Below are positions 488 to 37,284 of a stretch of DNA of 42,571 nt, in pieces (the first letter of the stretch is position 1; every line of letters starts with the position of its first letter). The notes beneath the pieces are model-generated. The model had not been told where the DNA came from and did no database searches. It saw nothing but the letters and a program-made list of their open reading frames with translations. The position numbers and the translations under genes are program-made. Origin of the DNA: Candidatus Zambryskiibacteriota bacterium (GTDB lineage: Bacteria; Patescibacteriota; Minisyncoccia; Phycocordibacterales; DATDWN01); contig JAPLZX010000022.1 of the NCBI GenBank assembly GCA_026394815.1, positions 1 through 42,571 of the forward strand, written 5' to 3'.

Positions 488-517
488 GAGAGGCGACCAC
501 CGAGCGCGGTCGTCTCT
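488..517. terminator. bidirectional GC-rich hairpin between the small ORF (+) and the ATPase gene (-)
   Basis: GAGAGGCGACC (488-498) pairs with GGTCGTCTCT (508-517) as a 10-bp stem with one G-U pair. T-rich sequence follows on the + strand. Confidence 0.55.
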
Positions 518-3264
518 TATTTCTTATACTTTTTCAAAATATCTTCTTCTATTTCCACACGATTACCACCATATGTAAGATATGAAAGTTGTTTTAATGT
601 TTCAATAATAGCTGGATTACCTTTTGGTGGAATTTCAGCTTTTATATTAAATGCTTTTACAGGTTTGCCCCCAACTAATATTTTTGCGTAAAAATTATAG
701 TTGTTTATATTCATAATATCTTTTGCTGTAAAAACAGGACTGAATTGTTTTTCCAAATATTCAGCATCTTCTGCGCCAACACGAAATGTAATAATTGAAC
801 CAATATTACCAAATACCGCATCACGAATATCTTCCTGCAATTGAGCAATAAATTGATGAGCAATATTGAGCGATAGTTTATATTTTCTGGCTTCCGAAAG
901 AATGGTGGCAATTGAATTGGTCGTTATATTTTGAAATTCATCAATGTATAAATAAAAAGGAGGAAAATCTCCGGTAGAATCTGCACGAGAAAGAGCAGCC
1001 ATCAAAATCTTACCAACCAAAATAAGACCGATGAGATTTGAGTTTATATCCCCTAGACGACCCTTGGAAAGATTAATCAGTAATATTTTCTTATTATCCA
1101 TTATTTTACGAAAATCAAAAGATGATTTTTCTTGAGCGATAATCGGTCGCATAATATCGTTTGCCAAAAAAACATCAAATTTGCTTGTGATATAAGGCAC
1201 AATGTTTGCAAGAGAGGCTTCCCCACCAGCTTTTTCCGCTACCTCTGTCCAAAACTGAACAACCACAGGATTTTTACAATGAGAAAGTTTCAAATCACGA
1301 AAGCCTTTATTTGTCATAACTCTTGAAACATCTAAAAGCGTGCAACCAGTGTCTGGGTCTTCAATAACCAGCATAGTGGCATTTCTAAAATACTGTTCAA
1401 ACATAGGACCTAAAGCTTCCGGCACTTTACCGTATAATTTTTGAAAGATACTAAATAACTCATTAACCACAAATGTTTTTTGCTCTGGATAAGTTTTATC
1501 ATATTCCAACATATTGAGAGCCATTGGGCGCTCCGTATAACTTGGGTCAAAATATATAACATCCTGAAAACGATTTTGTGGAATATTGGAAAGAACATCC
1601 AAAACATCCGGGCCATGTGGGTCAATAAAACAACAACCTTTGCCAGCAGTAATATCCTGAATAATCATATTCTTCAAAAGAGTGGTTTTCCCTGTACCTG
1701 TCTGTCCGATAGTATATAAATGTCGCAATCTATCGTCATCTTGCATGTAAATTGGCGTATCAATATTGCGATAATTATTTACACCAAGAAATGTCCCCTC
1801 ATGACCCATTTCGGCTGGAGCTGGTGCAGAAATAGACTGACTTTGTTTTAATTGTGGGGTTGGAGCAAGTCCTGTGTTTTGAAAATGAATTAACGAAGTA
1901 ACCTCATGAAGATTGAGTGGTAATAATTCATCCTCGTTATAACTTCTAAAAGAATAATTTCTAAACATTTTTTGCAGAACACTTTTTTCTAATCTTTTAG
2001 CTCTAAGACCATTTGCAGACGAATCTGTGAATTGATTAAAACTTGACTCTAGCCCTTGAAGAATTCTTTCAGCATCAATACGACTTTGAGCAGAAGCTAT
2101 TAAACGAATGTTTGTGGCCACGATAGTACTCCCTATTTTTTGTTTAATTTTTTGTATGGCTTCCGTATCGATAGGTTTCTTTTCTTCACTCTCTTTTGGA
2201 ACTGATTTAAATAAAGAAAATACAGTTTTTTTCAATCCCCCACTAAAAGATTCTGGCATATCTATGGCATCTTTAGTCGGCACTCCTTTTTCAATATGGT
2301 CAATTGCATATTCATATTTTTTTTGAAAATAATCTCCTTTTGGAGCAAAGACAATCTGAATCCCAGCCCCCTCACCGTCTTTGTTTATTTTTGAAAAACT
2401 ATTTAAAATAATGTTCAAGGGGTCATGGTCGAAATTCTCATAAGTTTTAAATTGATAAATAGGATTGTTGGTTGATTCTAAATAAGAGCCCAGAGAGATT
2501 CCATCTGCATTAAAAATATTATAATCAGAAGTAACTTCTGTTAATTTGGCGTCATGAAATACTGATATTATCTGTTTTTCAAAAAGAGATTTGTGAACAT
2601 CCGGTACTGCAACATAGAAAACAAATTGATCGCTACCGTTTGCGTTTGCAATTTCTAATACTATATAATTTTTTTTATAATCTTTTGTGTCGTCTTTGGT
2701 AATGACAGAAAGCATCCCAGATAAAAATTGTTCCATACTGGAAATCAATTCTTTTAAAGGTTTTGATTTTTCTTGTGATGAGTCCGTCGAACCGTTTTCA
2801 GGTAATACGACCTCATAGAGAGTCATGCCTAATCCTCGAAATTCTTCATTTGAAATATTGACCCCTTTTGCCCCATAACCGTGTTTTATATATTGAACAA
2901 GAAAACGATGAAAATCGTCTTCCAGATGAGGGTCTTTAAAACCAGAGAGTATTGACATGGTATTTTTTATACCTTTTTTGTTCAAAATACCAAGAAGTTC
3001 TTCTATCTTTTTATCATGTCTTTCTGGAGCCAAATTAAGAACAATTGATTCTACATCCGTTTGAGCCAGTGCGTAGGTTTCGTCCAATACTTCTTTTGGT
3101 AAAACATCACGATAATGTTGAATCTCTTCTTTTACAATATCGTCAATTTTAAAATCAACTTTTTTTTCGCGAAGTTCTAATTCTCTGTTTGATATTTGTT
3201 CACGAAGAAAAGCTATTTCTTCTTCAGGATTAGTGAAATGAAGATTCTCAAGATTTTTTTCCAT
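517..3264 (-). CDS. VirD4/TraG/TraD-like (type IV secretion coupling protein / DUF87-type) P-loop ATPase with an unrecognised N-terminal half
   Basis: 915 aa. The C-terminal half carries Walker A GQTGTGKTT, IDPHG, Walker-B-like FYLYIDEFQN and ARKYKLSLNIAHQFIAQL, in the order typical of T4SS coupling ATPases. Confidence 0.75.
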   Translation of the reverse strand: MEKNLENLHFTNPEEEIAFLREQISNRELELREKKVDFKIDDIVKEEIQHYRDVLPKEVLDETYALAQTDVESIVLNLAPERHDKKIEELLGILNKKGIKNTMSILSGFKDPHLEDDFHRFLVQYIKHGYGAKGVNISNEEFRGLGMTLYEVVLPENGSTDSSQEKSKPLKELISSMEQFLSGMLSVITKDDTKDYKKNYIVLEIANANGSDQFVFYVAVPDVHKSLFEKQIISVFHDAKLTEVTSDYNIFNADGISLGSYLESTNNPIYQFKTYENFDHDPLNIILNSFSKINKDGEGAGIQIVFAPKGDYFQKKYEYAIDHIEKGVPTKDAIDMPESFSGGLKKTVFSLFKSVPKESEEKKPIDTEAIQKIKQKIGSTIVATNIRLIASAQSRIDAERILQGLESSFNQFTDSSANGLRAKRLEKSVLQKMFRNYSFRSYNEDELLPLNLHEVTSLIHFQNTGLAPTPQLKQSQSISAPAPAEMGHEGTFLGVNNYRNIDTPIYMQDDDRLRHLYTIGQTGTGKTTLLKNMIIQDITAGKGCCFIDPHGPDVLDVLSNIPQNRFQDVIYFDPSYTERPMALNMLEYDKTYPEQKTFVVNELFSIFQKLYGKVPEALGPMFEQYFRNATMLVIEDPDTGCTLLDVSRVMTNKGFRDLKLSHCKNPVVVQFWTEVAEKAGGEASLANIVPYITSKFDVFLANDIMRPIIAQEKSSFDFRKIMDNKKILLINLSKGRLGDINSNLIGLILVGKILMAALSRADSTGDFPPFYLYIDEFQNITTNSIATILSEARKYKLSLNIAHQFIAQLQEDIRDAVFGNIGSIITFRVGAEDAEYLEKQFSPVFTAKDIMNINNYNFYAKILVGGKPVKAFNIKAEIPPKGNPAIIETLKQLSYLTYGGNRVEIEEDILKKYKK

Positions 3265-4351: not shown

Positions 4352-4387
4352 TTTAAAAAGAAGTGGGGTGCCCCGAGGACACCCCAC
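4352..4387 (-). terminator. intrinsic terminator of the 155-aa ORF
   Basis: GTGGGGTG (4363-4370) pairs with CACCCCAC (4380-4387). TTCTTTTT follows on the minus strand. Confidence 0.55.
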
Positions 4388-4398
4388 ACACGAAAGAC

Positions 4399-4866
4399 TC
4401 AGGCCGCCATCGTTCTGAGCACCTCTCGCGCCACACGACCTTTGGCCCGTGATATGCGGTCAATTACCCGCACACAGGCCATCGGATCTCTTTTCCCAAA
4501 AACCGAAAAGAGGGCATCACCAACTTCAACTTTAGACAGGCCACGGAAAGCCTTCCTCTTCGTCATGGTGCCGTAGCAGATCATGTCTCCGATAACCTCC
4601 CATTTCAGGTTACCGAAATAGTGGTGGAGATTTCTGTGCCGAAGAATCTTCATCCACAGGATGTTTCCCGTGTTGCCCTTCTTGCCATTCTTGCACTTGT
4701 TCGTCATGTGGTGCTTGTTGACTCTCCTCTTCTTTCTCACCACAGAAAACGAACAGTTGGAACGAAACGGCTTGCCAGTTGGATGAGCCCACTTGGACTG
4801 ACGACGCTTCTTGCGCCGACAAATCTTCCTGCGCCATCCCAGCTTACTCTGTCCCCCATACTTCAT
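4399..4866 (-). CDS. hypothetical, very basic 155-aa protein (Arg/Lys-rich N-terminal half)
   Basis: It is the longest ORF in the GC-rich patch. GAGGG lies 6 nt upstream of the ATG and a terminator follows. No family was recognised. Alternative-frame ORFs here are expected in GC-rich DNA. Confidence 0.45.
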   Translation of the reverse strand: MKYGGQSKLGWRRKICRRKKRRQSKWAHPTGKPFRSNCSFSVVRKKRRVNKHHMTNKCKNGKKGNTGNILWMKILRHRNLHHYFGNLKWEVIGDMICYGTMTKRKAFRGLSKVEVGDALFSVFGKRDPMACVRVIDRISRAKGRVAREVLRTMAA

Positions 4867-5084
4867 CTTTGTCCCTCAGATGTGTGGTTCCAGAAGTAGC
4901 TAATGGGTTTGCAGAGGAACACCTTTCTACATTTCTGACACCTCTCTTTCTTTGTTGTAAGAACTCCATAATCATTATATCAAAATAAACAAATTTGGGT
5001 ATTTTAAATTTTTTAATTTTTGATTATTTCATTATGGTGCTATGCTTATACAGGAAATGTTCACCAAGGAAGGGGTAAAAGAAA

Positions 5085-6179
5085 ATGAGACTGCCGAGAG
5101 TAGCCATCAAGGGTTTTCAACTGGACAACTGTATTGTCCAGGGAGGAATGGGTGTTGGCGTTTCGCTTCACCCCCTCGCAGGAGCCGTGGCTAAAGAAGG
5201 CGGTCTCGGAATAGTTTCGAGTGCCGGCCTTCGTAGCGTCGTCTCTTCGCGAGACGGGAAAGATGTCGACACATACACCGCTGTACGTATCGAACTGGAG
5301 AAAGCAAAAAGTGGAAGCGGTGGTGGGACTGTCGGCATCAATGTGATGTGTGCGGTGGTTGAATACGAGGACACTATTCGTGCTGCGATTGACGCAGAGA
5401 TTGGTGCGATCGTTTCTGGTGCAGGACTTCCACTTGGACTTCCGAGCATCAAACCACCTGGACACACAGCGCTTATCCCAATTATCTCCTCGGCTCGTGC
5501 TCTGGAGATTATTGTCAGGCGCTGGGAACGAGTCCACTATCGCCCGGACGCGGTTGTGTTGGAAGGACCGCTGGCTGGAGGACATCTCGGCTTCAAACCC
5601 GAAGAGGTGGATAATCCAGCTTTCGAGCTGGAGAAACTCTTGCCTCCTGTTCTCGAAGTCGCCCACAGACACGGAGACTTTCCAGTCATAGTGGCTGGCG
5701 GAATCTACACCCACCAAGACATCGTCAGGTTCTTGGTAATGGGAGCAAGTGGTGTACAGATGGGAACACGTTTTTTGGCAACGAATGAAAGTTCAGCCAC
5801 GGACGCGTATAAACGAGCTGTGATTTCTGCAGGTATAGACGACATCACCGTCGTCACATACCCCAACAGAATTCCGGCTTCACCGTGTGGACTTCCGTTC
5901 AGAGTCCTTAAGTGTTCGCCTATGTACAAGACAGAGCGTCCGGCCAAGTGCAACAAGGGGTACGTTCTCCAGCGAGGGCCAGACGAAAAGCTCTCTGCCT
6001 GCCAGGCGATGCCGAAAGCACCGAACAACAAGTCGTTCCTCTGCATCTGTAACGGTCTTCTATCTTCGGCCGGATACGCTCCGGAAGAACCCCCTCTCTA
6101 CACCGTCGGCACGAATGCCTATCGTGTAGACAAACTCCTCTCCGTAACAGAACTCATGGGTGAGTTATGCGGAGAATGA
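5085..6179 (+). CDS. nitronate monooxygenase / NPD-family FMN oxidoreductase (FabK-like)
   Basis: Motifs GGMGVGVS..LAGAVAKEGGLGIVSSAG, VSGAGLPLG, VAGGI and GASGVQMGTRFLAT. GC about 50-53% in hand-counted lines. Confidence 0.85.
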   Translation: MRLPRVAIKGFQLDNCIVQGGMGVGVSLHPLAGAVAKEGGLGIVSSAGLRSVVSSRDGKDVDTYTAVRIELEKAKSGSGGGTVGINVMCAVVEYEDTIRAAIDAEIGAIVSGAGLPLGLPSIKPPGHTALIPIISSARALEIIVRRWERVHYRPDAVVLEGPLAGGHLGFKPEEVDNPAFELEKLLPPVLEVAHRHGDFPVIVAGGIYTHQDIVRFLVMGASGVQMGTRFLATNESSATDAYKRAVISAGIDDITVVTYPNRIPASPCGLPFRVLKCSPMYKTERPAKCNKGYVLQRGPDEKLSACQAMPKAPNNKSFLCICNGLLSSAGYAPEEPPLYTVGTNAYRVDKLLSVTELMGELCGE

Positions 6180-6185
6180 CCAAAG

Positions 6186-6240
6186 CCGTTGCTTCTGTTG
6201 TTAACACAAGACAGAGGCAACGGTTTTCCTATTCTTTTTT
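6186..6240 (+). terminator. intrinsic terminator of the NMO gene
   Basis: A 13-bp stem, CCGTTGCTTCTGT (6186-6198) with ACAGAGGCAACGG (6211-6223), is followed by a T-rich run. Confidence 0.7.
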
Positions 6241-6306
6241 TATAACAAAAACCGCCGACCAGTAATTGATCGGGGTTGGGAATCTCGTGAGATAATGCCG
6301 AGAGCA

Positions 6307-6747
6307 TTACCCCACGAGATTGAAATACTGAAGCGTCCTGTGAAGAGCATACTGGTGAGTCTTGTAGAGAACCCTACCCAACTCGTCCGCCTTTACCCAG
6401 TAGGGCGGTGACAAGGTATCGTCTCCGTCAAGAATTTGTTCCCTACGAAGAATCCCCACACAATCATCGATTGAGACGAGGAAGAATACTTGTCGCCCAA
6501 TGACTCTGAGTATTCTTGGTCTTACACCCAATCTTAATCGAAGATTCGTTTCCTCTTCCAATTCTCTGATGAGAGTTTCAGAAGCACTGCTGTCTTCCTT
6601 GTGCCCTCGATTCGTTCCTCCGGGAAACTTTGTCTGCAGAGGTTTACAAATATACCTCTGGTCCATGGATTTGCTGTCCTGAACCAGAAGATATATCTTA
6701 CCCTCTTCTCTTTTCCAAACAACGGCACCAGCGAACCAGCGATACAT
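6307..6747 (-). CDS. NUDIX hydrolase
   Basis: Nudix box GGTNRGHKEDSSASETLIRELEEETNL. Start moved to ATG 6747 (MYRWFAG), which has AGGAG 6 nt upstream. The track start at 6825 lies inside a TTGACT/TATTAT promoter. Confidence 0.75.
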   Translation of the reverse strand: MYRWFAGAVVWKREEGKIYLLVQDSKSMDQRYICKPLQTKFPGGTNRGHKEDSSASETLIRELEEETNLRLRLGVRPRILRVIGRQVFFLVSIDDCVGILRREQILDGDDTLSPPYWVKADELGRVLYKTHQYALHRTLQYFNLVG

Positions 6748-6840
6748 TTGTTGCTCCTGGCTGAAGTGGTTGTGTCTTACATTCCGAGAACTTCTCGGAT
6801 TTCTACCTATATAATACCATATCAAAATAGAAAGTCAATG

Positions 6841-6912
6841 TGACCTTACCGGGAATTGAACCCGGATTCCAGCCTTGAGAAGGCTGTGTCCTAACCGTTA
6901 GACGATAAGGCC
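6841..6912 (-). tRNA. tRNA-Glu (anticodon CUC)
   Basis: Hand-folded 72-nt cloverleaf. Acceptor GGCCTTA/TAAGGTC, D arm GTCT..GGAC, anticodon stem CAGCC/GGCTG with loop TTCTCAA, T arm CCGGG-TTCAATT-CCCGG. CCA is not encoded. Confidence 0.9.
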
Positions 6913-11347: not shown

Positions 11348-11782
11348 TTAGATAACACCTACTTGGCCAAGTTTTTCGGCCAAAGTATCAGCTTGTTTTT
11401 CCACGACCTTTTTGTATTCTCCCCACGTCTTCTCATTCCAAATTTCCACACGACTAGAAACCCCTATGACAACCACCTTACTTTTTAGATTTGCCCTGTC
11501 ACGTAGAAATTCCGGAATAAGAATACGACCAATGGAATCAACCTCAGCTTCCGTTGCTCCGGCAAACATGTGCCGGCTGAAACTTCGGCTATCGGCTTGA
11601 CCGATTGAGGATTGATTTAATTTTTCTTCAATCTTCAACCATTCCTTTTGGGTAAATACAAACAAGCAGGAATCAAGCCCTGGAGTTACCACAATTTTTT
11701 TACCCATCTCTTGACGAAATTTCGCTGGCAGCGAGAGACGATTTTTGTCATCAATGATATGTGTGTATTCTCCTATGAGCAT
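11348..11782 (-). CDS. mraZ: transcriptional regulator MraZ
   Basis: It has the MraZ N-terminus (MLIGEYTHIIDDKNRLSLPAKFR) and a second SpoVT-AbrB repeat, and is the first gene of the dcw cluster. Confidence 0.9.
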   Translation of the reverse strand: MLIGEYTHIIDDKNRLSLPAKFRQEMGKKIVVTPGLDSCLFVFTQKEWLKIEEKLNQSSIGQADSRSFSRHMFAGATEAEVDSIGRILIPEFLRDRANLKSKVVVIGVSSRVEIWNEKTWGEYKKVVEKQADTLAEKLGQVGVI

Positions 11783-27012: not shown

Positions 27013-27120
27013 ATGAATCCCGTACGAAATTTATGCAGTTTGTCTTACGGGAAATATATTAGTAAATTATAGTTAATAATAAATAAAGGTGAAAAAATAA
27101 CTTTTATTTCGTACGGGATG
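27013..27120 (+). repeat. 108-bp MITE-like element, copy 1 (14-bp TIR ATCCCGTACGAAAT)
   Basis: It is an inverted copy of 29097-29203, with about 11 mismatches and 1 indel by hand alignment. Its own ends form a perfect 14-bp inverted repeat. Its last 3 nt are the ATG of def. Confidence 0.6.
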
Positions 27121-29099: not shown

Positions 29100-29203
29100 C
29101 CCGTACGAAATAAAAGTTATTTTTTTGCTTTTATTTTCATTAACTATAACTTACTAATTTACCTCCCGTAAGACAAACTATATAAATTTCGTACGGGATT
29201 CAT
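29097..29203 (-). repeat. 107-bp MITE-like element, copy 2 (inverted relative to copy 1)
   Basis: Its reverse complement aligns end to end with 27013-27120. Its inner end supplies the hpf ATG (29099-29097). Confidence 0.6.
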
Positions 29204-29291: not shown

Positions 29292-29367
29292 TCTGCGATA
29301 GCTCAGTCGGTAGAGCGCCTCCCTGTTAAGGAGGATGTCCCAGGTTCGAGCCCTGGTCGCAGAGCCA
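29292..29367 (+). tRNA. tRNA-Asn (anticodon GUU), CCA encoded
   Basis: Hand-folded 76-nt cloverleaf. Acceptor TCTGCGA/TCGCAGA, D arm GCTC..GAGC, anticodon stem CCTCC/GGAGG with loop CTGTTAA, T arm CCAGG-TTCGAGC-CCTGG, then G and CCA. Confidence 0.95.
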
Positions 29368-29369
29368 TC

Positions 29370-29402
29370 AAAAAATAACCTTATAATACAAGGTTATTTT
29401 TT
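29370..29402 (+). terminator. hairpin terminator after tRNA-Asn
   Basis: AAAAAATAACCTT pairs with AAGGTTATTTTTT as a 13-bp stem. Confidence 0.7.
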
Positions 29403-29447
29403 GATACCCCAGACATGGTTCAGAACTTTTATATTAAATATTCCCTA

Positions 29448-30413
29448 CTATAAAATAACATTAAACAAATACCCGGTAAATATAATTCCCATTCCAACTA
29501 TTCCAGCAAAAATAATTATTAGTTTTATTTTCATCACTTTTTTTAAAATCATAAATTCTGGTAGTGACAACGCAGTGACTGACATCATAAAAGCAAGTGT
29601 GGTGCCCATAGATACACCTTTTTCGGTTAGTGCAGACACGAGTGGTATAACTCCGGCGGCATTTGAGTAAAGTGGAATACCGATAAGAACAGCTAGAGGT
29701 ACAGCATACCATTTACCGCTTCCAGCATATTTAGCCAGGAAATCAGCGGGTAGATACCCATGTATCCATGCCCCCACCCCAATTCCAACCAGAATATACG
29801 GCCAGACTTTTTTTAGAATATCCAGTGTGTAATCCTTGGCATATTCGATTCTCTCTTTTCTTGTCATACTAGGCAAATCTATATTACCATTTACAGAATT
29901 TTGATAAACAAAAGACTCAACCAAATTTTCCACTTTTAGCTGACCTATTACTATTCCCGAGAGGATGGCGATAATAAGACCACTGACAATGTACATTAGG
30001 GCGATTTTCCAACCGAAAAGTCCAAGAAGTAGAACCAAGGCTACCTCATTAATCATTGGAGAAGCTACAAGAAAAGAGAATGTTGTTCCTAGTGGCACTC
30101 CAGCTTGGATAAACCCGAGAAATAGTGGTATAGCCGAACAAGAACAAAACGGAGTGATGATCCCTAATAGTGAAGCCAGAATGTTCCCAATATATTTATT
30201 TTTGTGAGACAAAATTGTTCGTATTTTTTCTGGTGGCAGATATGAACGGATAATTGAAACTGCAAAAATAATGATGGATAGGAGAATAAATATCTTGATA
30301 GTATCAAAAACAAAGAAGTTAACTGCACTCGCAAGAAGCGTCTTTGGAACGATATTTAAGAGACCGTATGTAAACCAGTCAGCAAATAGTTGTATGGGGT
30401 AAAATATATCCAT
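29448..30413 (-). CDS. DUF318/ArsP-like permease
   Basis: A polytopic protein with ITPFCSCSAIPLF. It lies in an operon with a thioredoxin-fold protein and an ArsR regulator. Confidence 0.8.
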   Translation of the reverse strand: MDIFYPIQLFADWFTYGLLNIVPKTLLASAVNFFVFDTIKIFILLSIIIFAVSIIRSYLPPEKIRTILSHKNKYIGNILASLLGIITPFCSCSAIPLFLGFIQAGVPLGTTFSFLVASPMINEVALVLLLGLFGWKIALMYIVSGLIIAILSGIVIGQLKVENLVESFVYQNSVNGNIDLPSMTRKERIEYAKDYTLDILKKVWPYILVGIGVGAWIHGYLPADFLAKYAGSGKWYAVPLAVLIGIPLYSNAAGVIPLVSALTEKGVSMGTTLAFMMSVTALSLPEFMILKKVMKIKLIIIFAGIVGMGIIFTGYLFNVIL

Positions 30414-30422
30414 TGTATTTTA

Positions 30423-30731
30423 TTAACATTTACCACCACAACTACACCCCCCTGATTTATCTTTTTTATCTTCTATAACTGTGTCCGAACAACCTTTTTT
30501 GATAAGTTCTTTAATTTTTTCTTTATCTTTCGGCATACCAACAAAAACCGGCTTCCCGTTAATTGCTAAAACTGGGCTGGACATAAGACCCATAGCGACG
30601 ATCTTTTGAACATCTGTTATGTATTCCACTTCAGTCTTTATACCCATTTCAACTATAACTTCCTTCGTTAACTCATATAACTTCTTGCAGGTTGGACAAC
30701 CTGAACCTAGCACTTGGATTTGTGATTCCAT
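30423..30731 (-). CDS. thioredoxin-fold redox-active disulfide protein (TM0996/MTH895-like) with a Cys-rich tail
   Basis: VLGSGCPTCKKL and MSSPVLAINGK, with a C-terminal GGCSCGGKC. Confidence 0.8.
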   Translation of the reverse strand: MESQIQVLGSGCPTCKKLYELTKEVIVEMGIKTEVEYITDVQKIVAMGLMSSPVLAINGKPVFVGMPKDKEKIKELIKKGCSDTVIEDKKDKSGGCSCGGKC

Positions 30732-30735
30732 ATTT

Positions 30736-31008
30736 TTATATTATTGTTTCTGTTAATGCTAATTGATAATTTTTGATAACCTTTTCGTTTCGTGAATAAA
30801 GAATTTTCGTGCCATCTCTCCTGCTTTTTATAAGTTTTAGATCTTTAAGAACCTTTAGGTGATGTGAGCTTAAATTTTGAGGTAACTTCAACTTGGGATG
30901 TATCTCACACGCACATTTTTCTCCTTTTTTAAGAAAACTTAAAATAGCCAGACGATTTGGTTCGGCTAGTGCTGTAAGGTAAGTTTTGATGTCTAATTTA
31001 TTGTTCAT
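30736..31008 (-). CDS. ArsR/SmtB-family metalloregulator
   Basis: LAEPNRLAILSFL, a CAC metal site and an HHLKVLKD recognition helix. Start set at ATG 31008. Confidence 0.8.
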   Translation of the reverse strand: MNNKLDIKTYLTALAEPNRLAILSFLKKGEKCACEIHPKLKLPQNLSSHHLKVLKDLKLIKSRRDGTKILYSRNEKVIKNYQLALTETII

Positions 31009-31013
31009 AGAAA

Positions 31014-31043
31014 ATACTATATCAATTAATATTGATATAGTAT
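31014..31043. promoter_or_regulatory. 13-4-13 perfect inverted repeat, probable ArsR operator
   Basis: ATACTATATCAAT-taat-ATTGATATAGTAT lies 6 nt upstream of the arsR-like start. Confidence 0.55.
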
Positions 31044-31209
31044 CAGTAACTAGTCTGAAATACAATTTTGCCTGTGTATATCCTACTGCGTCAACATTAT
31101 TCTGAAGTGTAAATTTTTATAATAATGCTAGAATTCCGCTAAACTGCAGCTCACTTTTGATTCCGGACCAGTTCGCTATCCTGAATTTCTCTATCAAAGA
31201 GTTCCAAAC

Positions 31210-31454
31210 CTGTCTACCAGACAGAGCACGAGGAGCCCCGCAAGGGGCTTTTCTCGTGCTCTGCGAATTCAAAACGAAGTTTTGAATAAGGGCTCGAACA
31301 AATCCATGGTCTACTGACGCATCGGCGTCTGTCGCGGATTTGCGTTTTCAATTTCAATGAACAACGGTGAATTGAAATTGAAAAAGAGATCCCTGGTCAC
31401 AGAGGCGGTTTTCTTTTACTCAAAATCAAGTTACCTACCTGCGCAGGCAGGTAA
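31210..31454. repeat. array of six near-perfect, mostly GC-rich hairpins, ORF-free
   Basis: Stems at 31210-24, 31223-62 (10 bp + 6 bp with a GCAA loop), 31267-87, 31299-342 (enclosing GACGC-atcg-GCGTC), 31346-83 (13 bp) and 31431-54 (followed by a T-run). Confidence 0.5.
31391..31404 (+). repeat. direct repeat of the tRNA-Asn 3' end (attR-like remnant 1)
   Basis: CCCTGGTCaCAGAG against tRNA CCCTGGTCGCAGAG (29351-29364), a 13/14 match in the same orientation. Confidence 0.5.
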
Positions 31455-31485
31455 TTTTTACTTTCTCTTGTTATAATATAAACAT

Positions 31486-32226
31486 ATGAGAAAATTTTTC
31501 CAGAGATTGGCATTAAAAATGGGTTATGAGGTGAAAAAGTTGTCGTTACCAGAGTATGATCAAACTAATCCTTTCTATGTTCAACAATATTTACTTAGAG
31601 ATGTAAATACACCAGTAATATTTGACGTCGGCGCGGCAAACGGAGAAACAGTAGTAAGATATGAGAAAATATTCGTTCAATCCGAAATTTATTGTTTTGA
31701 ACCGTTTAAAGAATTTTTCGAAAATTTAAAAAATAATCACAAAAACGTCCGAGCTTATAATACAGCACTGGGAAATAAAAATGGTAAAGTAAATTTTCAT
31801 GTCAATCCATCTTTGGGATCAAGTTCAATTTTACCTACAGACAAAAGAGGCCCTGATAACTGGTGGGCCGGTGTTTTGGAAACCAAAGAGATAATCGAAA
31901 TTCCTATAATGACTTTGGACAAATTTACTAGAGATAACTCGATTGACCATATTGATATATTGAAGTTAGATACCCAAGGCACAGAGTATGAAATTATTGA
32001 AGGAGCAACTGAGACACTAAAGAAAACAAAACTTATATTCACAGAAATTACTGTAATACCAACATACGAAGGGCAAAAAGAGATTGATGAAATAATAAAG
32101 ATACTGCGCCTTAATGGTTTTTATATACATAACTTCTATGATATTTGGCTAGGTAAAGGGAAAAATCGTGGCAGAATTAGGCAATTAGATGCAATCTTTT
32201 TAAACGAGAAGTTTTTCCCAAAATAA
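31486..32226 (+). CDS. FkbM-family SAM-dependent methyltransferase
   Basis: FDVGAANGE (SAM motif I), and the length and motif spacing are FkbM-like. Confidence 0.8.
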   Translation: MRKFFQRLALKMGYEVKKLSLPEYDQTNPFYVQQYLLRDVNTPVIFDVGAANGETVVRYEKIFVQSEIYCFEPFKEFFENLKNNHKNVRAYNTALGNKNGKVNFHVNPSLGSSSILPTDKRGPDNWWAGVLETKEIIEIPIMTLDKFTRDNSIDHIDILKLDTQGTEYEIIEGATETLKKTKLIFTEITVIPTYEGQKEIDEIIKILRLNGFYIHNFYDIWLGKGKNRGRIRQLDAIFLNEKFFPK

Positions 32227-32412
32227 TATCTTTCGGCCTGTATTATTCTATTCTACTGAACCACATTTTCATCCTTATCTACCACTACAGCAGTATCGTT
32301 TCATGAGGTGTATGGACGCGAAAGCCAAAACCTACAAGCCAATTAGTAGACAACGTACGGTAAATGTGGTATTTTTAATTTTGGAAGAAACCAGTTTGGA
32401 AAGGAGCCCAAC

Positions 32413-33099
32413 ATGCGGAGAATGATGTTGTTTGTCGTCGCAGCTTTATTTCTTGTGGCAGGCACTGCGTTTGCTCAGGAAAGCCCGAGGTGGAGCATCG
32501 ATTTCATGCTCGACACCGGAAGAACGTCGAGTGACTACAAAACCACTCCACGCGAGGGGTGGCAGAAGGACTTTCAGCCCCCAGGAAGGAGCATGAAGGT
32601 TTCCACGATGAATCCGACCCATTCCTCAACGACCATTCGGCTCGGTCTCAGTTTTGACATATTGAGAACCAAGTCTGGCTGGCGTCTGCGTGTGCCCATT
32701 TCCGAGCAACTCGCAGGGTGGTCCGGCAGTTACATCAATTCGTTTGGGCAGGAGGAATTGGCCAAAGCGACAGCCGATTGGTGGGACCCCGTCACAGTGA
32801 GTGATGTGGTGGTCAAGCGGTATGTACCGCGCATCGGCCTTGAGGTCGTTCGCGGCCGCTTCATGTTTGGGGTCTCCGGTCAATACTTCACAGTATCGGA
32901 GAGACAGTTCAGAGGTGTGGACTGCTCTGGATGTGTCAACACTTCGAAAGTTATCAGTTCGAAGGATACAACCGGGATCAGCCCACGCCTTGAGTTCTAC
33001 TACGGTCCGTTCGGCGGCTTCTACGAGCTGCCCGGCGACAAGATATCTCGGTTTGGCTTCATCTTCCGGGTTCGCACATCGGACCTTATCGGGATGTGA
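32413..33099 (+). CDS. secreted beta-rich protein resembling a small outer-membrane beta-barrel; GC-rich
   Basis: Signal peptide MRRMMLFVVAALFLVAGTAFA/QE, alternating hydrophobic patterns, and GGAAAGGAG before the ATG. 52% GC in the hand-counted line 32641-32700. Confidence 0.6.
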   Translation: MRRMMLFVVAALFLVAGTAFAQESPRWSIDFMLDTGRTSSDYKTTPREGWQKDFQPPGRSMKVSTMNPTHSSTTIRLGLSFDILRTKSGWRLRVPISEQLAGWSGSYINSFGQEELAKATADWWDPVTVSDVVVKRYVPRIGLEVVRGRFMFGVSGQYFTVSERQFRGVDCSGCVNTSKVISSKDTTGISPRLEFYYGPFGGFYELPGDKISRFGFIFRVRTSDLIGM

Positions 33100-33120
33100 C
33101 CGACCTTATCGGGATGTGAC
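33082..33120 (+). repeat. tandem direct duplication of GACCTTATCGGGATGTGAC spanning the stop codon
   Basis: Identical 19-mers at 33082-33100 and 33102-33120 are separated by 1 nt. Confidence 0.85.
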
Positions 33121-33125
33121 TACTT

Positions 33126-33153
33126 AACCCCGTGTGCTCGCGCACACGGGGTT
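33126..33153 (+). terminator. 11-bp GC-rich hairpin terminator
   Basis: AACCCCGTGTG pairs with CACACGGGGTT. Confidence 0.7.
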
Positions 33154-33563
33154 ACTCTATTTAATTTAGATGTTAAAATTTGTAAATATAAAAATGGTTG
33201 CTGGCCCGTTTCCACGGATGCATAGAAATTTTCTATCTGACAAGATGAGAAATTTTGAGGGGAATCATCCAACCCGCGGGACTAATCACAACACAAAATT
33301 TTCTAAAATATTGGACTTCCCCCCGTTCCCTACCCGCGGAGCAGATAATCATTTATAATATACCCATGGTCATAGACATAGAACTAACTCTTAATAGGTT
33401 TGGGTTTGGGAAAATTTCTGAAAATAAATTTCAGTTGTTTTGTTTTAGATTCTCAAAATGGAAAATCCCAAACAAATACTCCATCTCTTTTGAAATAAAC
33501 TGGAAGACAAGTGAGATTAAAGATACCTAGCCCTTTTATCCTTTTATCTTTATCCTTCGAAAA

Positions 33564-33582
33564 GAGCACCTTGGTCGCAGAG
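33564..33582 (+). repeat. direct repeat of the tRNA-Asn 3' end (attR-like remnant 2)
   Basis: GAGCaCCtTGGTCGCAGAG against tRNA GAGCCCTGGTCGCAGAG. The 11-mer TGGTCGCAGAG is exact, and TTCGA lies just upstream as in the T-loop. Confidence 0.55.
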
Positions 33583-33697
33583 TAAAGTTTTTAGCTATAT
33601 TTCTCCACACAATTTTACCCGTCTGCAAAAGCTATGCTTTAGCATTGCGGGCAGGACGACCCTTTCGTGAGACTTGAATTTTTAGTATAATTTTTAT

Positions 33698-34300
33698 ATG
33701 AAAAAAAATTATATCATTTTAATAATTCTTGTTTTGATAGCGTTAGTGACTGGCTTAGTTATTTTTAGACCGCATTCCGGCAAAGAGAAGGTAGCCGAGC
33801 AAACTTTACCGAAAGATTATAAAAACGCAACGTATATAATTGAAGGACAATCCGTTACCCTTACTAATGGATTATCTGAAATTGAAGCAGCGCCTGGCTC
33901 AGCAACAAAAATCATTACCCGTTATTTCGGCAATGAAGTTAAGCACGACCTTAACGATGACGGCCGTGAAGATGTGGTTTTTCTTTTGACTCAGGAAACC
34001 GGCGGTAGCGGTGTCTTTTACTATATTGTCGCTGCCTTAAATACTCCGGACGGCTATATCGGTTCGCAAGCTGTTTTCTTGGGTGACCGTATTGCCCCAC
34101 AAACGACACACATGGATGAAGGAATAACGTCAAAGGGAACCAACAGACAAAATGTTATTGTTGTTAATTATGCCGTTCGTTTACCGGGGGAGCCGTTTAC
34201 TGCCAGACCTTCATTAGGTAAAAGTATGTGGCTTAAACTCGATCCGGTTACAATGCAGTTCGCCGAAGTAGCACAAAATTTTGAAGGCGAATCCAGATAA
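33698..34300 (+). CDS. hypothetical membrane-anchored/secreted protein
   Basis: 200 aa with an N-terminal TM segment. No family was recognised. Confidence 0.65.
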   Translation: MKKNYIILIILVLIALVTGLVIFRPHSGKEKVAEQTLPKDYKNATYIIEGQSVTLTNGLSEIEAAPGSATKIITRYFGNEVKHDLNDDGREDVVFLLTQETGGSGVFYYIVAALNTPDGYIGSQAVFLGDRIAPQTTHMDEGITSKGTNRQNVIVVNYAVRLPGEPFTARPSLGKSMWLKLDPVTMQFAEVAQNFEGESR

Positions 34301-34336
34301 AATTAAAACTTTTTTATTTTGTGTTATTATAAATAT

Positions 34337-34579
34337 ATGAAAAAAATAATTACAACACAATTTATAGTTTTACTTATTGGAACTGTTTTTGCTTGGTATA
34401 ATTTTTCAAGAGAACTTATTGATTGGTCTGCAAGTCGCGCCTGCACCACAGGATGCGCGACGGGTTTAGTTAATCCATTTTTTACTCCTTGTTTTTACGG
34501 AGCAATATTTTTCACTATTGCTTTTGTTTTGAGTATCTTTATTTTGAAATATAAAAATAGAGATTACCAGCAGATTTAG
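34337..34579 (+). CDS. small two-TM membrane protein with a CTTGC motif
   Basis: Start set at ATG 34337 (MKKIITTQF), because the track start at 34319 is a TTG. Confidence 0.55.
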   Translation: MKKIITTQFIVLLIGTVFAWYNFSRELIDWSASRACTTGCATGLVNPFFTPCFYGAIFFTIAFVLSIFILKYKNRDYQQI

Positions 34580-34672
34580 TGCGCGGATAAATTTGCAAAT
34601 AATTTTAGTTTATGGTTTAATACTTAACGGATCGTTCCCCCCTCCAACCCAACCTTATAGCAAAGGAGACTT

Positions 34673-34963
34673 ATGCTCAGAGGAAATCTGGGACTATCTG
34701 CCATCAGGGAAGTTGATGATATTGCTGGCAGTGCCACTCAGGAACACGAATTGTTTGTGCGAATCAGAATTTGCCAAGCAAGAGTGATCTTAGACAACGC
34801 TGAAACCAGCCCAGGTCAGCGTGTGTGTCGGGATTGCGGAGATGAAATCTCGCAGAAACGACTGATGGTCGTTCCCGGTGCAATTCGTTGCACCACCTGT
34901 GAAGGAATATGGGAGAGGACTCACCCGAAGATTCCTCCTCCTCGTCACTTACAAAGTCGGTAG
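34673..34963 (+). CDS. TraR/DksA-family C4 zinc-finger protein
   Basis: CRDCGDEISQKRLMVVPGAIRCTTCE (CxxC-17-CxxC), AAGGAG upstream of the ATG, and a GC-rich patch. Confidence 0.75.
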   Translation: MLRGNLGLSAIREVDDIAGSATQEHELFVRIRICQARVILDNAETSPGQRVCRDCGDEISQKRLMVVPGAIRCTTCEGIWERTHPKIPPPRHLQSR

Positions 34964-35022
34964 TAGTCCCCCCGCCCCATCCTTTTGAGATCTACCGGCT
35001 GGATCCCAGCCCAGCCGTCGCC

Positions 35023-35060
35023 GCCTCGTCGTCGTAACACCGTCGTCGAGGCTTTTCTCT
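35023..35060 (+). terminator. hairpin terminator after the TraR-like gene
   Basis: GCCTCGTCGTCG pairs with CGTCGTCGAGGC (12 positions, two U-U mismatches), followed by TTTT. Confidence 0.55.
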
Positions 35061-35130
35061 TGTAAAAAACAAATGTGGTAAAAATTTTTTGGTGTATAAT
35101 AATAAAAGTTATTAACTTAAGTTCATTATT

Positions 35131-36894
35131 ATGCTTAAAAAATCAATCTATTCAAACTATTTCATAAAAATAATATTTCTTTTTACACTTATTGTTTTAC
35201 CGTCTGTTCTCTTCGCAGCTTCTGCCTCCATTCAATATTTTTCTCCTAGCACCATCGTCTCTGTTGGTGGTGATGTTTTTTTCAGAATTAGCCCCGAGGG
35301 TTTCTCTGGTGCTATCACATATATAGTAAGTGACACGTTTTCAGGAACTAGTGTTTCTAGCTCAAACATAGATAGTTCCGGAACATTTATTTGGAAACCT
35401 GCAACTCAAGATATTGGCACTCATAATATTACAGTAAATCTATCGGATCAGTTTAGTAATACTGCATCCGTCTCGCAACAAATTATAGTGCCTGTAATTC
35501 CAACAGTTACAATTAGAAATGTCTTTCCTAGTTCTTCGGTTAATGTAGGACAAACTATTTTCTTTAGTACACTCGTAACTGGATTTACAAATCCAATATA
35601 TTCAATTACTGATTCAATTTATACTTCAAGTCTAACTCCAACAAACATGAATTCTTCCGGTGATTTCAGTTGGACACCAAAATCTTGGGATGTCGGAAGC
35701 CATAATATAACTATAGTTGTGACAGATAATTCCGGACGAAGTGCCACAGCTATTCAAAGTATAATCGTAGGAGTGGCTACTACAACCATAGAATTGCTTT
35801 CCCCAGGAAACACTGTCACCTCTAGACAAAATGTCACTTTCAAAGTTACACCGATAAATTTTACCAATCCCATATATACCCTAAGTGATTCCGTTTCAGG
35901 AAGTAGTATTAATAGCGGAAATTTAAATGCTCTTGGAATTTTCAATTGGACACCAACACCAAGTGATTTAGGTACTCATTTAATTACAATAAGAGTAAGT
36001 GATGCTTCTGGAAGTATTTCTACTATTTCGCAACAAATAACCGTAACTAATCCTAGAATTGATATAAAATCTGCAAGCCCTAGCACAACCATAGGTGTAG
36101 GAGTAACATTATCTTTCAATGCAACTTCAACTGGACTTATAACCCCACGTTACACAATTAATGATTCGTTTGGTGGAACTAGTATTTCTAATAGTAATAT
36201 AAATTCATCTGGAGAATTTAGTTGGACCCCAAAAAGCATTGATATTGGAGTACACCCCATAAGAATATTAGCAACGGATAATTTTGGCAGTAATGCAAGT
36301 ACCGAAATGTTAATAATAGTTAAAGCTTCATCAAGCGCAACAATTTCTTCCCCTACAAATGCAGGAGTTGTCACGGTAAATACTCCGACTACTGCGGTAA
36401 ATTATACCTTTAATAAATCTCTTTCTGTTGGATCGTCTGGTGCAGATGTCTCCGCCCTCCAAGTAATCTTGAAACAACAAGGATTTTTATCTACAGATGT
36501 AACCGGATATTATGGAAGTTTGACAGAAAAAGCAGTTAAAGATTTTCAATCTTCGCGTGGGTTAGAGGCTGTGGGTTTTGTAGGCCCAGGGACAAGAACC
36601 TCTTTAAATAATTTGCAAAATATAAATACAAATGCGGGTACAAATACTACCACTAACACTACAGCTAATTCAAAATATACATTCACTAAACCATTAACTA
36701 TTGGTTCAACTGGTACAGAAGTTTCTGAATTACAGAAAAAATTAACGAGTTTAGGTTTATATTCTGGACCTATAACTGGCACTTTCGGTCCATTAACTCA
36801 AACGGCTGTTAAAAAACTCCAATTAGGACATAATTTGGAACAGATTGGAAGTGTAGGCCCCGCAACACGAACAGCACTAAATAGCGAAATATAG
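35131..36894 (+). CDS. surface protein with five tandem Ig-like repeats and two C-terminal peptidoglycan-binding (PG_binding_1-like) domains
   Basis: Signal/TM N-terminus. About 95-aa repeats each carry SSG.F.W.P...D.G.H.I. There are two copies of GS.G..V..LQ..L...G.....TG.(F/Y)G.LT..AVK.(F/L)Q. Confidence 0.8.
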   Translation: MLKKSIYSNYFIKIIFLFTLIVLPSVLFAASASIQYFSPSTIVSVGGDVFFRISPEGFSGAITYIVSDTFSGTSVSSSNIDSSGTFIWKPATQDIGTHNITVNLSDQFSNTASVSQQIIVPVIPTVTIRNVFPSSSVNVGQTIFFSTLVTGFTNPIYSITDSIYTSSLTPTNMNSSGDFSWTPKSWDVGSHNITIVVTDNSGRSATAIQSIIVGVATTTIELLSPGNTVTSRQNVTFKVTPINFTNPIYTLSDSVSGSSINSGNLNALGIFNWTPTPSDLGTHLITIRVSDASGSISTISQQITVTNPRIDIKSASPSTTIGVGVTLSFNATSTGLITPRYTINDSFGGTSISNSNINSSGEFSWTPKSIDIGVHPIRILATDNFGSNASTEMLIIVKASSSATISSPTNAGVVTVNTPTTAVNYTFNKSLSVGSSGADVSALQVILKQQGFLSTDVTGYYGSLTEKAVKDFQSSRGLEAVGFVGPGTRTSLNNLQNINTNAGTNTTTNTTANSKYTFTKPLTIGSTGTEVSELQKKLTSLGLYSGPITGTFGPLTQTAVKKLQLGHNLEQIGSVGPATRTALNSEI

Positions 36895-37014
36895 AAAGAT
36901 AATGTTCATTTAACCTTTACAAGTCTGACTTTGTAGAGTACTATTTATATTGGAAATTATGGATACAACCGAGTTCGGGCGGTATCCCGAATAATCAGCG
37001 GATTAGAGGGCAAC

Positions 37015-37227
37015 ATGGGGTCAGAAGAATTCCGTCATGTTCCAGTCCTGGTCGCTAGAGATTTGGCGAATGCCGTCATTGCGCGAGCCCTCGCCGACGC
37101 ACTCAACCCGACCAACTCTCTCAAAGTCCGCGAAGATGCCAAGGAGTTCCTCAGGCGCGACAACACCACCTGTACGATGTATTGCGCAAAGGCAGGTATC
37201 GACCCGCGGAGCATCTGTCTCCGCTAG
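37015..37227 (+). CDS. hypothetical 70-aa protein in a GC-rich patch
   Basis: TTTACA-17-TACTAT promoter, a structured leader and a strong terminator. No motif was recognised. Confidence 0.4.
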   Translation: MGSEEFRHVPVLVARDLANAVIARALADALNPTNSLKVREDAKEFLRRDNTTCTMYCAKAGIDPRSICLR

Positions 37228-37247
37228 GCGAGCTTGCTGTTCACCGG

Positions 37248-37284
37248 CCTCCGTCCCGATTTTTGGGGCGGAGGTTGTTCTTTT
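37248..37284 (+). terminator. intrinsic terminator
   Basis: CCTCCGTCCC pairs with GGGGCGGAGG (10 bp, one G-U), followed by TTGTTCTTTT. Confidence 0.6.

Follow-up and report, generated by a model that had tools for sequence, protein, structure and literature searches.

What has assembled the DNA that follows the tRNA-Asn gene in a Patescibacterium, and what are the copies of that gene's 3' end that recur within it? The window analyzed here, i.e., the whole stretch of 42,571 nucleotides (nt), derives from Candidatus Zambryskiibacteriota (GCA_026394815.1, contig JAPLZX010000022.1, positions 1-42,571, forward strand), and its host is a Patescibacterium (Parcubacteria/Paceibacterota) with a GC content of ~34% that occurs in lake and freshwater metagenomes. 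An earlier reading of the bare sequence, hereafter the original prediction, proposed that two integrase-less segments had been integrated in tandem into the 3' end of this tRNA gene and that decayed copies of that end mark their outer borders. Comparison with relatives leads us to a modified form of this proposal, in which the interval from 29368 to ~37280 is, on balance, probably a flexible island built by repeated site-specific insertion at the tRNA-Asn 3' end and at tRNA-like copies of it. A stacked, tRNA-anchored flexible island fits a known kind of system; the more interesting finding is a folded unit that appears undescribed and to which one of the repeats belongs.

The left anchor of the variable region and the hairpin behind it are:

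29292-29367, + strand: intact tRNA-Asn (GTT) with encoded CCA, found by ARAGORN and by Rfam (tRNA, 69.7 bits)
29367-29405, + strand: terminator-like hairpin followed by a T run, immediately 3' of the tRNA (arms of 19 nt, complementarity 95%)

This tRNA-Asn is identical to those of two relatives (L002 and L114; L-numbers denote the loci compared, taken from 80 species representatives and from metagenomes). As the original prediction held, its 3' end recurs twice in direct orientation. The 14-mer CCCTGGTCGCAGAG has three sites at one mismatch or fewer, all on the + strand: one within the tRNA (29351) and one-mismatch copies outside it at 31391-31404 (CCCTGGTCACAGAG) and 33569-33582 (CCTTGGTCGCAGAG), hereafter copies 2 and 3; none occurred in 100 shuffled windows. 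TTCGA, expected just 5' of the third copy, is present at 33556-33560, the exact 11-mer TGGTCGCAGAG lies at 33572, and a repeat search recovered a family of 17 nt whose members are spaced by 2040 and 2178 nt. That these matches are chance similarity within 42.5 kb is hardly credible. One-mismatch 12-nt matches to either tRNA do occur elsewhere in the window, and the Smith-Waterman scores of copies 2 and 3 taken alone (26) lie inside the span of maxima that shuffles gave, but 1500 simulations in which any 14-mer of the last 27 nt of the tRNA could match on either strand with one mismatch gave 0.023 sites per window and in no case two or more (0/1500), compared with the two extra sites observed, which are co-oriented and 3' of the tRNA. 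The same architecture is repeated in >20 independent loci with arms matching their own tRNA, and these results effectively refute the chance explanation. The original prediction had missed inverted tRNA-end copies at 31258-31266 and 31288-31299, a foreign-type tRNA-Asn end at 33328-33342, a candidate copy at 37036-37060 and a small open reading frame (ORF), all of which are treated below. An assembly chimera, whether of the region or of its GC-rich ORF, is ruled out by independent runs that give identical junctions at even depth: the same unitig (4119 nt, 29534-33652) occurs at flank depth in four runs of one study, and contigs of a second study span both repeats.

Comparison of the locus across relatives yielded the pattern anticipated for an insertion point, with synteny up to the tRNA and different content behind it. 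The gene order MreB, PriA-like, def, fmt, HPF (- strand) is kept in the 80 species representatives and, among 39 sufficiently long metagenome loci, in nearly all; tRNA-Asn comes next wherever the gene is detectable. Beyond the tRNA the locus is hypervariable, its DNA being different in each lineage examined. The cargo of the window, i.e., its ArsP, thioredoxin (Trx), ArsR, FkbM and GC-rich ORF, was found 3' of tRNA-Asn in none of the 80 representatives and 39 metagenome loci, and a shared flank consisting of a small membrane protein and a bPH-domain gene returns only from ~37285. Since synteny extends to the tRNA and the shared flank resumes only there, the interval 29368-37280 is lineage-specific. 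In the window, L114 (HPF 94% identical), L002 and L090 the tRNA has the common end ...GGTCGCAGAGC, and the sequences diverge at the very next base. Over a length of 9633 nt L091 and L092 are 100% identical; they split exactly after ...CCGCCGGAGC, past which L091 carries an island opening with a large serine recombinase. Variants with junctions at the tRNA end are found in the L091/L092 pair and between species; none was seen for the window's own segments in eight runs of assembled contigs, nor did relatives show direct repeats where the conserved flank begins. Taken together, these alignments support the view that the tRNA-Asn 3' end acts as an insertion hot spot in the clade.

The tRNA-Asn gene itself varies in many relatives by an anticodon-loop insertion of ~200-250 nt with group-I-intron-like motifs (e.g., GATGATATAGTCC). 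Such intron-bearing genes, which ARAGORN misses, occur at L005, L043, L066, L076, L090, L091/L092 and L101, and the intron of L076 is covered by contigs from RNA sequencing (RNA-seq). In L002, the stretch 11440-11620, 5' of the intact tRNA-Asn, begins with cattctgctaagctttagtcggtggagtg and looks like a decayed tRNA 5' part followed by GC-rich structured sequence.

Candidate enzymes for insertion at the tRNA are encoded in the relatives, at least nine of which have a large serine recombinase beside tRNA-Asn. That of L002 (526 amino acids (aa); Resolvase, Recombinase and Zn_ribbon_recom domains) overlaps the tRNA 3' end on the opposite strand, homologues of it adjoin the tRNA in L068, L049, L015, L071, L006, L042, L091 and L105, and a provirus contig in IMG/VR with a further homologue terminates within a tRNA T-arm. 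When the ends of the L002 island are joined, 10-nt perfect inverted repeats (TTCTAAAATC / GATTTTAGAA) come to lie 20 nt apart around a centre of CAGAGC, the very end of the tRNA, in what would be a layout typical of serine-recombinase sites. The window holds no tyrosine or serine recombinase by Pfam search of 43 ORFs (all those of at least 139 aa judged to be plausible genes) or by tblastn with the L002 recombinase, and the earlier statement that no integrase remains is correct across the 42.5 kb. Serine-recombinase-type ends were also sought through TTCTAAAAT near 33301, and the result was not significant (three matches, one expected). A 915-aa ORF at window 517-3264 has a weak match to the TraG/TraD C-terminal domain (E 1e-5); it may encode a coupling-protein-like ATPase and would be the window's only transfer-related gene.

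One of the two repeats proved to be part of a larger structure, the parts and surroundings of which are:

31228-31262, + strand: GC-rich hairpin (AGCACGAGGAGCCCC gcaa GGGGCTTTTCTCGTGCT) ahead of the module, from sequence and alignment
31255-31406, + strand: conserved structured module, type 2, from covariance model, folding and DNA identity
31258-31266: module part, complement of the tRNA acceptor 3' strand (GCTCTGCGA)
31267-31287: module part, hairpin H1
31288-31299: module part, inverted T-arm (AAGGGCTCGAAC)
31299-31341: module part, hairpin H2a
31344-31384: module part, hairpin H2b
31386-31404: module part, direct tRNA-end copy, i.e., copy 2 (GAGATCCCTGGTCACAGAG)
31431-31454: palindromic hairpin with T runs on either side, resembling a bidirectional terminator

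What had been described as a GC-rich hairpin array of the first segment is this conserved module, and copy 2, which had been taken for a decayed attR remnant, is one strand of it. In relatives (L003, L009, L025, L041, L053, L078, L080 and others) a terminator-like hairpin comes next after the tRNA; it opens each unit, has its counterpart in the hairpin at 31228-31262, and is succeeded by a module of ~140 nt. The module consists of the acceptor-3'-strand complement, H1, the inverted T-arm, H2, a GGTGTAC junction, H3 with GTA in its loop, a direct T-arm copy with a constant 2-nt insert, and the acceptor 3' strand. In this fold the terminal 21-25 nt of the tRNA gene, from T-loop to discriminator base, are paired with inverted copies, and hairpins break up the pairing. 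Most relatives have the unit directly 3' of the tRNA, with no cargo between. The order in L002 is tRNA, 6 kb of other cargo including the recombinase, and module, and that in L090 is tRNA, module, 4.2 kb of recombinase-free cargo, and module.

A covariance model built without the window has its top window match at 31252-31406 (17.3 bits, E 0.0018), and the window's module shares 67-75% DNA identity with those of L090, L115 and L002. RNAalifold on seven relatives, window excluded, gave 37 pairs, 28 of them compensatory. Over 18 module instances, 91.7% of cells are paired compared with 65% in shuffles and 36-52% in slid controls, and changes on both sides occur at 29 of the 37 pairs, values that none of 500 shuffles attained. 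The type-2 consensus fold has 48 pairs, half of them (24) compensatory, and the window copy by itself folds to the type-2 shape at -51.8 kcal/mol (z -4.2 as RNA, z -5.2 as DNA). The arms covary with the neighboring tRNA: in 12/17 cases the inverted T-arm reproduces an 11-mer of the genome's own tRNA exactly, mismatches averaging 0.6 vs. 2.2 for the tRNAs of other genomes, and in L058, where a module adjoins tRNA-Pro, they match tRNA-Pro. Units may also stand in tandem, two of 190 nt being identical in L005, three divergent in L076, and two present in L089; each of the L005 units ends in CCCTACCCGCGGAGC, and a different terminator follows.

These properties could also reflect function as RNA. 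We regard it as possible, if on the unlikely side, that the repeats are not integration scars but working parts of a tRNA-like non-coding RNA, a sense transcript whose ends rebuild the acceptor and T-stem of the neighboring tRNA, other hairpins substituting for D-arm, anticodon arm and T-loop. Copies 2 and 3 would then represent a duplicated or truncated RNA gene, and the cargo would have come by unrelated routes, e.g., with serine-recombinase elements at the tRNA-end/terminator junction. The strong covariation in both the general and the type-2 fold argues for this, as do the excess of G.U over A.C pairs on the tRNA-sense strand (28 vs. 9), the conserved loop and junction motifs (GGTGTAC; GTA in H3) and the tracking of the own tRNA by the arms, tRNA-Pro included. 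DNA identity among modules is 70-90%, which fits vertical descent; near-identical units in distant genomes, which might have proved mobility, were not found. Against an RNA stand the lack of space for a promoter, as the module begins 2-6 nt past a strong terminator-like hairpin, and its lack of coverage in six RNA-seq runs (assembled contigs, weak for this purpose; window, L009 and L076), in which only the tRNA or its intron was covered. Rfam also holds no matching family, its version 15 covariance models yielding only tRNA matches in the window and in six relatives' loci. Furthermore, an RNA would leave unexplained both the foreign-type end at 33328-33342 and the position of the cargo in the window, L002 and L090, which falls exactly between copies of the tRNA end.

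The viral contigs scanned yielded no phage-borne module: two pattern scans of IMG/VR returned 7 and >120 matches, none of the 87 tested (7 + 80) matched the covariance model, and the recombinase-bearing provirus contig is likewise without the module. The H2-H3 core (ACCTT...AAAGGTGTACTGnnnCTGTAAGnnn) also occurs without tRNA arms in larger hairpin-rich intergenic elements, at L001 3480-3735, L008 7228-7284 (- strand) and L032 12548-12617; the L001 element has no Rfam match at E<=1.

Further copies of tRNA-Asn ends, firm and candidate, are:

33556-33582, + strand: copy 3 (TTCGAAAAGAGCACCTTGGTCGCAGAG), truncated 3' end of a type-2 module
33328-33342, + strand: exact 15-mer CCCTACCCGCGGAGC, the tRNA-Asn 3' end of other lineages (L003, L005, L015, L089)
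37036-37060, + strand: candidate fourth own-type copy (CATGTTCCAGTCCTGGTCGCTAGAG; 21/25, one gap), in a GC-rich patch
37195-37212, + strand: candidate foreign-type remnant (GGTATCGACCCGCGGAGC, then CTCCGC), with direct and inverted acceptor strands together
37245-37277: terminator-like hairpin after the remnant at 37195-37212
31201-31231, + strand: weak candidate for a tRNA 3' end that is displaced and decayed (GTTCCAAACCTGTCTACCAGACAGAGCA), without statistical support

AAAAGAG and the 2-nt insert occur in copy 3 as they do in copy 2 and at the ends of the L090 and L002 modules, and copy 3 resembles such ends (AAAAGAG, 2-nt insert, CC.TGGTCGCAGAG; AAAAGAGCACCCTGGTCGCAAAG in L090A) more than it does the tRNA. 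As the covariance model found no module 5' of it, we read it as the truncated end of a unit. The outer repeat of the original prediction is real, but it is a truncated module end instead of a plain tRNA copy. These details also bear on the idea that the copies are decayed tandem tRNA-Asn duplicates (pseudo-tRNAs) between which genes were inserted later. Although several tRNA-derived stretches do lie 3' of the gene in direct orientation, this origin is very improbable: only the 3' 14-27 nt recur, a 12-mer scan of the whole tRNA having found no 5' half, D-arm or anticodon arm; ARAGORN and Rfam report no further tRNA; the 2-nt insert and AAAAGAG of copies 2 and 3 are typical of module ends and not of tRNA; and recognizable 5' halves are absent from all 17 modules examined.

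The 15-mer at 33328-33342 differs from the tRNA 3' end of its own genome. Used as queries, 26 tRNA-Asn end variants from relatives have a null expectation of 0.02 sites per window; four sites were found, all on the + strand and all within 29.35-33.58 kb. This 15-mer is the clearest sign of DNA that was apparently brought in from the tRNA-Asn locus of another lineage. For the candidate at 37036-37060, which may lie in a small ORF, the Smith-Waterman score is 32 compared with maxima of 18-28 in 12 shuffles. The candidate at 31201-31231 directly precedes the hairpin ahead of the module, in the order of tRNA tail and terminator known from L002, L090 and L114, and parallels the CAGAGC-plus-terminator of L002 and the GCGGAGC-plus-terminator of L090.

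Between and beyond these copies lie the cargo genes:

29448-31065, - strand: cargo 1, three-gene cassette (Pfam)
30736-31065, - strand: ArsR-type regulator (Pfam)
30423-30731, - strand: Thioredoxin_3 protein (Pfam)
29448-30413, - strand: ArsP_1/YraQ-type permease (Pfam)
31486-32226, + strand: cargo 2a, FkbM-family methyltransferase (PF05050, E 6e-27)
32413-33099, + strand: cargo 2b, GC-rich (54%) ORF with signal peptide and no Pfam family
33125-33154: terminator-like hairpin 3' of cargo 2b
33366-33533, + strand: conserved small ORF of ~55 aa
33698-34300, + strand: 200-aa protein, further variable gene
34319-34579, + strand: 86-aa membrane protein, further variable gene
34673-34963, + strand: DksA/TraR zinc-finger protein, GC-richer (Pfam)
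35131-36894, + strand: Ig-like/peptidoglycan-binding protein (Pfam)

Pfam confirmed the gene content originally given for the two segments (ArsP_1 permease, Thioredoxin_3, ArsR HTH_5, FkbM methyltransferase and a GC-rich ORF with signal peptide). The ArsR-Thioredoxin_3-ArsP_1 cassette has >8000 homologues, of which the best 120 show 84-92% amino-acid identity (permease), and is kept as a three-gene unit in many Patescibacteria lineages in different genomic contexts. A recent transfer of this cassette was considered and rejected, because its nearest homologues, at ~90% amino-acid identity, reach only 75-78% in DNA. The cassette (L269, L272) has redox, thiol and sulfur genes as neighbors (DsbD, TauE, thioredoxin reductase, rhodanese), a hint that its function is something other than arsenic resistance.

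For cargo 2b a single homologue was found (62% identity); it, too, lies in a patch of high GC content within a different low-GC genome. Foreign DNA is indicated by such GC-rich patches and by an ORFan that has moved between genomes. A perfect 19-20-nt tandem duplication (GACCTTATCGGGATGTGAC x2) at 33082-33120 spans the stop codon of this ORF, and a match to the tRNA-Glu end at 33083-33114 (- strand, 12/13, duplicated) was judged to be probably chance, one-mismatch 12-mer matches being common. The ~400 nt dismissed at first as non-coding debris in fact hold the foreign tRNA-Asn end and the small ORF at 33366-33533, which matched no Pfam family and has 84% nucleotide identity over 139 nt to L008 12165-12303, with differences mostly at third codon positions. 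Among the genes from 33698 to 36894, only the 200-aa protein has homologues near tRNA-Asn, in few relatives (L019, L080, L017, L121). The short stretch 33616-33849, beside copy 3, has further copies in the genome or community; it is present at ~3x the depth of its neighbors in runs X1-X4, with unitigs breaking at 33626-33652.

How would such a region have arisen? Under the favored explanation, repeated insertion at the tRNA end, each insertion would have pushed older DNA outward and left a tRNA-end copy at the joint. Stepwise insertion of this kind would account for two own-type copies (31386-31404 and 33556-33582) and a foreign-type one (33328-33342), and perhaps also for those at 37036-37060 and 37195-37212. 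The innermost repeat, copy 2, would not be a scar but the 3' strand of a ~150-nt unit (terminator hairpin plus module), and the tRNA-like end and terminator of this unit may have served as a reusable landing site. The cargo is now without a recombinase and, as far as the data show, fixed. Of the originally proposed tandem integrations into the tRNA 3' end, the insertion itself is favored by the hot spot, the recombinases of relatives and the cargo between copies in L090, whereas the simple reading of the copies as decayed scars is wrong for copy 2 and incomplete for copy 3. The repeats, the hypervariable locus, its junctions at the tRNA end, the recombinases of relatives and the fold and covariation of the module are directly observed; the arrival of the window's segments through site-specific recombination, the landing-site role of the unit and the identity of the enzyme are inferred.

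Several results weigh against this explanation. The window is free of recombinases. Copy 2 is under structural constraint, and its presence alone is no proof of an integration event; the displaced end at 31201-31231 is no more than a weak candidate. The site reconstructed for L002 would leave a repeat of only ~6 nt, which fits the CAGAGC / GCGGAGC remnants before unit terminators, so that the serine recombinase of the relatives does not explain repeats of 14-25 nt, and the ends of the ArsR-Trx-ArsP segment lack inverted repeats like those of L002. Neither excision nor variant junctions at the repeats were found in eight metagenome runs, which were assembled contigs at 3-25x depth, where rare forms would escape. 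Finally, the low DNA identity of the ArsR-Trx-ArsP cassette to its homologues means that its arrival was not recent.

Comparison with known systems shows how far the locus follows established patterns. Staphylococcal cassette chromosome (SCC) elements at rlmH and streptococcal cis-mobilizable elements (CIMEs) and integrative and conjugative elements (ICEs) form tandem arrays at the 3' end of a housekeeping gene, with short direct repeats bounding the segments. Some segments have no recombinase and are thought to be mobilized in trans or in cis, and the SCC enzymes are large serine recombinases (Ccr). Here, by contrast, the target is a tRNA gene, mobilization is only putative, and a folded module lies within the repeat.

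Folded single-stranded sites are known from integrons (attC) and from CTX phage (attP(+)), the latter using the host XerCD, and serve elements without an integrase of their own. It is doubtful, by our estimate, that the module is a new attachment site or miniature mobile unit of this kind, whose single strand would fold so that the stem reproduces the duplex tRNA 3' end. Such a site would be retuned in each lineage and to at least two tRNAs (Asn and Pro), and an enzyme acting in trans would insert, stack and exchange recombinase-free DNA. The likeness consists in an imperfect hairpin of ~60-150 nt whose stem equals the duplex target, in extrahelical bases (the constant 2-nt bulge), in a variable distal part, in tandem arrays and in the predicted layout of inverted copy, spacer and direct copy fused to the chromosomal site, the integrated form of which is the expected leftover of a folded single-stranded site. 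Unlike in integrons, there is no Phage_integrase domain (IntI) in the window; R/L-box consensus sequences as in attC are not apparent, no search aimed at them having been made; and the target is the tRNA-Asn 3' end and not dif as in the CTX type. The module is an imperfect branched hairpin, of which the window has one complete instance. Conserved loops and G.U pairs suit an RNA at least equally, and single-stranded integration is here hypothetical.

A likeness in layout also exists to tRNA islands of the Islander/TIGER type, which likewise have an intact tRNA at one end, displaced direct 3' fragments with cargo between them, and a hypervariable locus whose junctions lie at the tRNA end when relatives are compared (PMC4383910). 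The displaced 3' fragments of the window, each in + orientation, lie at 31391, 33569 and, for the foreign type, 33328; copy 2 is part of the module as well. Islander islands are described as using tyrosine integrases (PMC4383910), whereas the window's island is without an integrase, one of its "fragments" is embedded in a structured module, and the recombinases at the locus in relatives are large serine enzymes. The tycheposons of Prochlorococcus (bioRxiv 10.1101/2020.12.28.424599), to which the original prediction likened the layout, resemble the locus in their degenerate remnants, scattered partial tRNAs and adaptive cargo, and the window indeed has elements in tandem with partial copies of the island tRNA between them. 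The encoded tyrosine or large serine integrase of tycheposons is absent from the window, and Pfam domains of the primase/helicase/polymerase module that many members carry are absent from 29368-37280, so that membership fails on integrase and replication genes. The host also belongs to a different phylum, and no structured module is described for tycheposons (bioRxiv 10.1101/2020.12.28.424599).

Two further features of the window lie outside this interval. A second tRNA-linked foreign patch at 4370-6830, 3' of tRNA-Glu(CTC) (6840-6912, - strand), has a GC content of ~49% vs. 33% and contains a NUDIX hydrolase, a nitronate monooxygenase and a 155-aa ORF of no known kind; no repeat of the tRNA-Glu end was found at this patch. 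Two copies of ~99 nt resembling miniature inverted-repeat transposable elements, with perfect 12-nt terminal inverted repeats (CCCGTACGAAAT), lie at 27019-27117 and 29100-29197. One of them stands between HPF and tRNA-Asn, where metagenome depth is 3-5x that of the flanks, and an inverted copy precedes def in L089.

Patescibacteria have tiny genomes, no cultured genetics and few recognized mobile elements, and gene exchange among them is largely obscure. Against this background, the locus described here is a tRNA-anchored island of lineage-specific content, in which blocks of cargo are stacked between tRNA-end copies, and the origin of one such copy from another lineage points to transfer between lineages. 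If the folded unit is a recombination site, it would explain the build-up of recombinase-free cassettes and would constitute a compact landing pad that can be retuned in sequence; an attachment site in this sense would amount to a tRNA-anchored cassette platform of the integron or CTX kind. A family of tRNA-mimicking RNAs, if that is what the unit encodes, would likewise be new.

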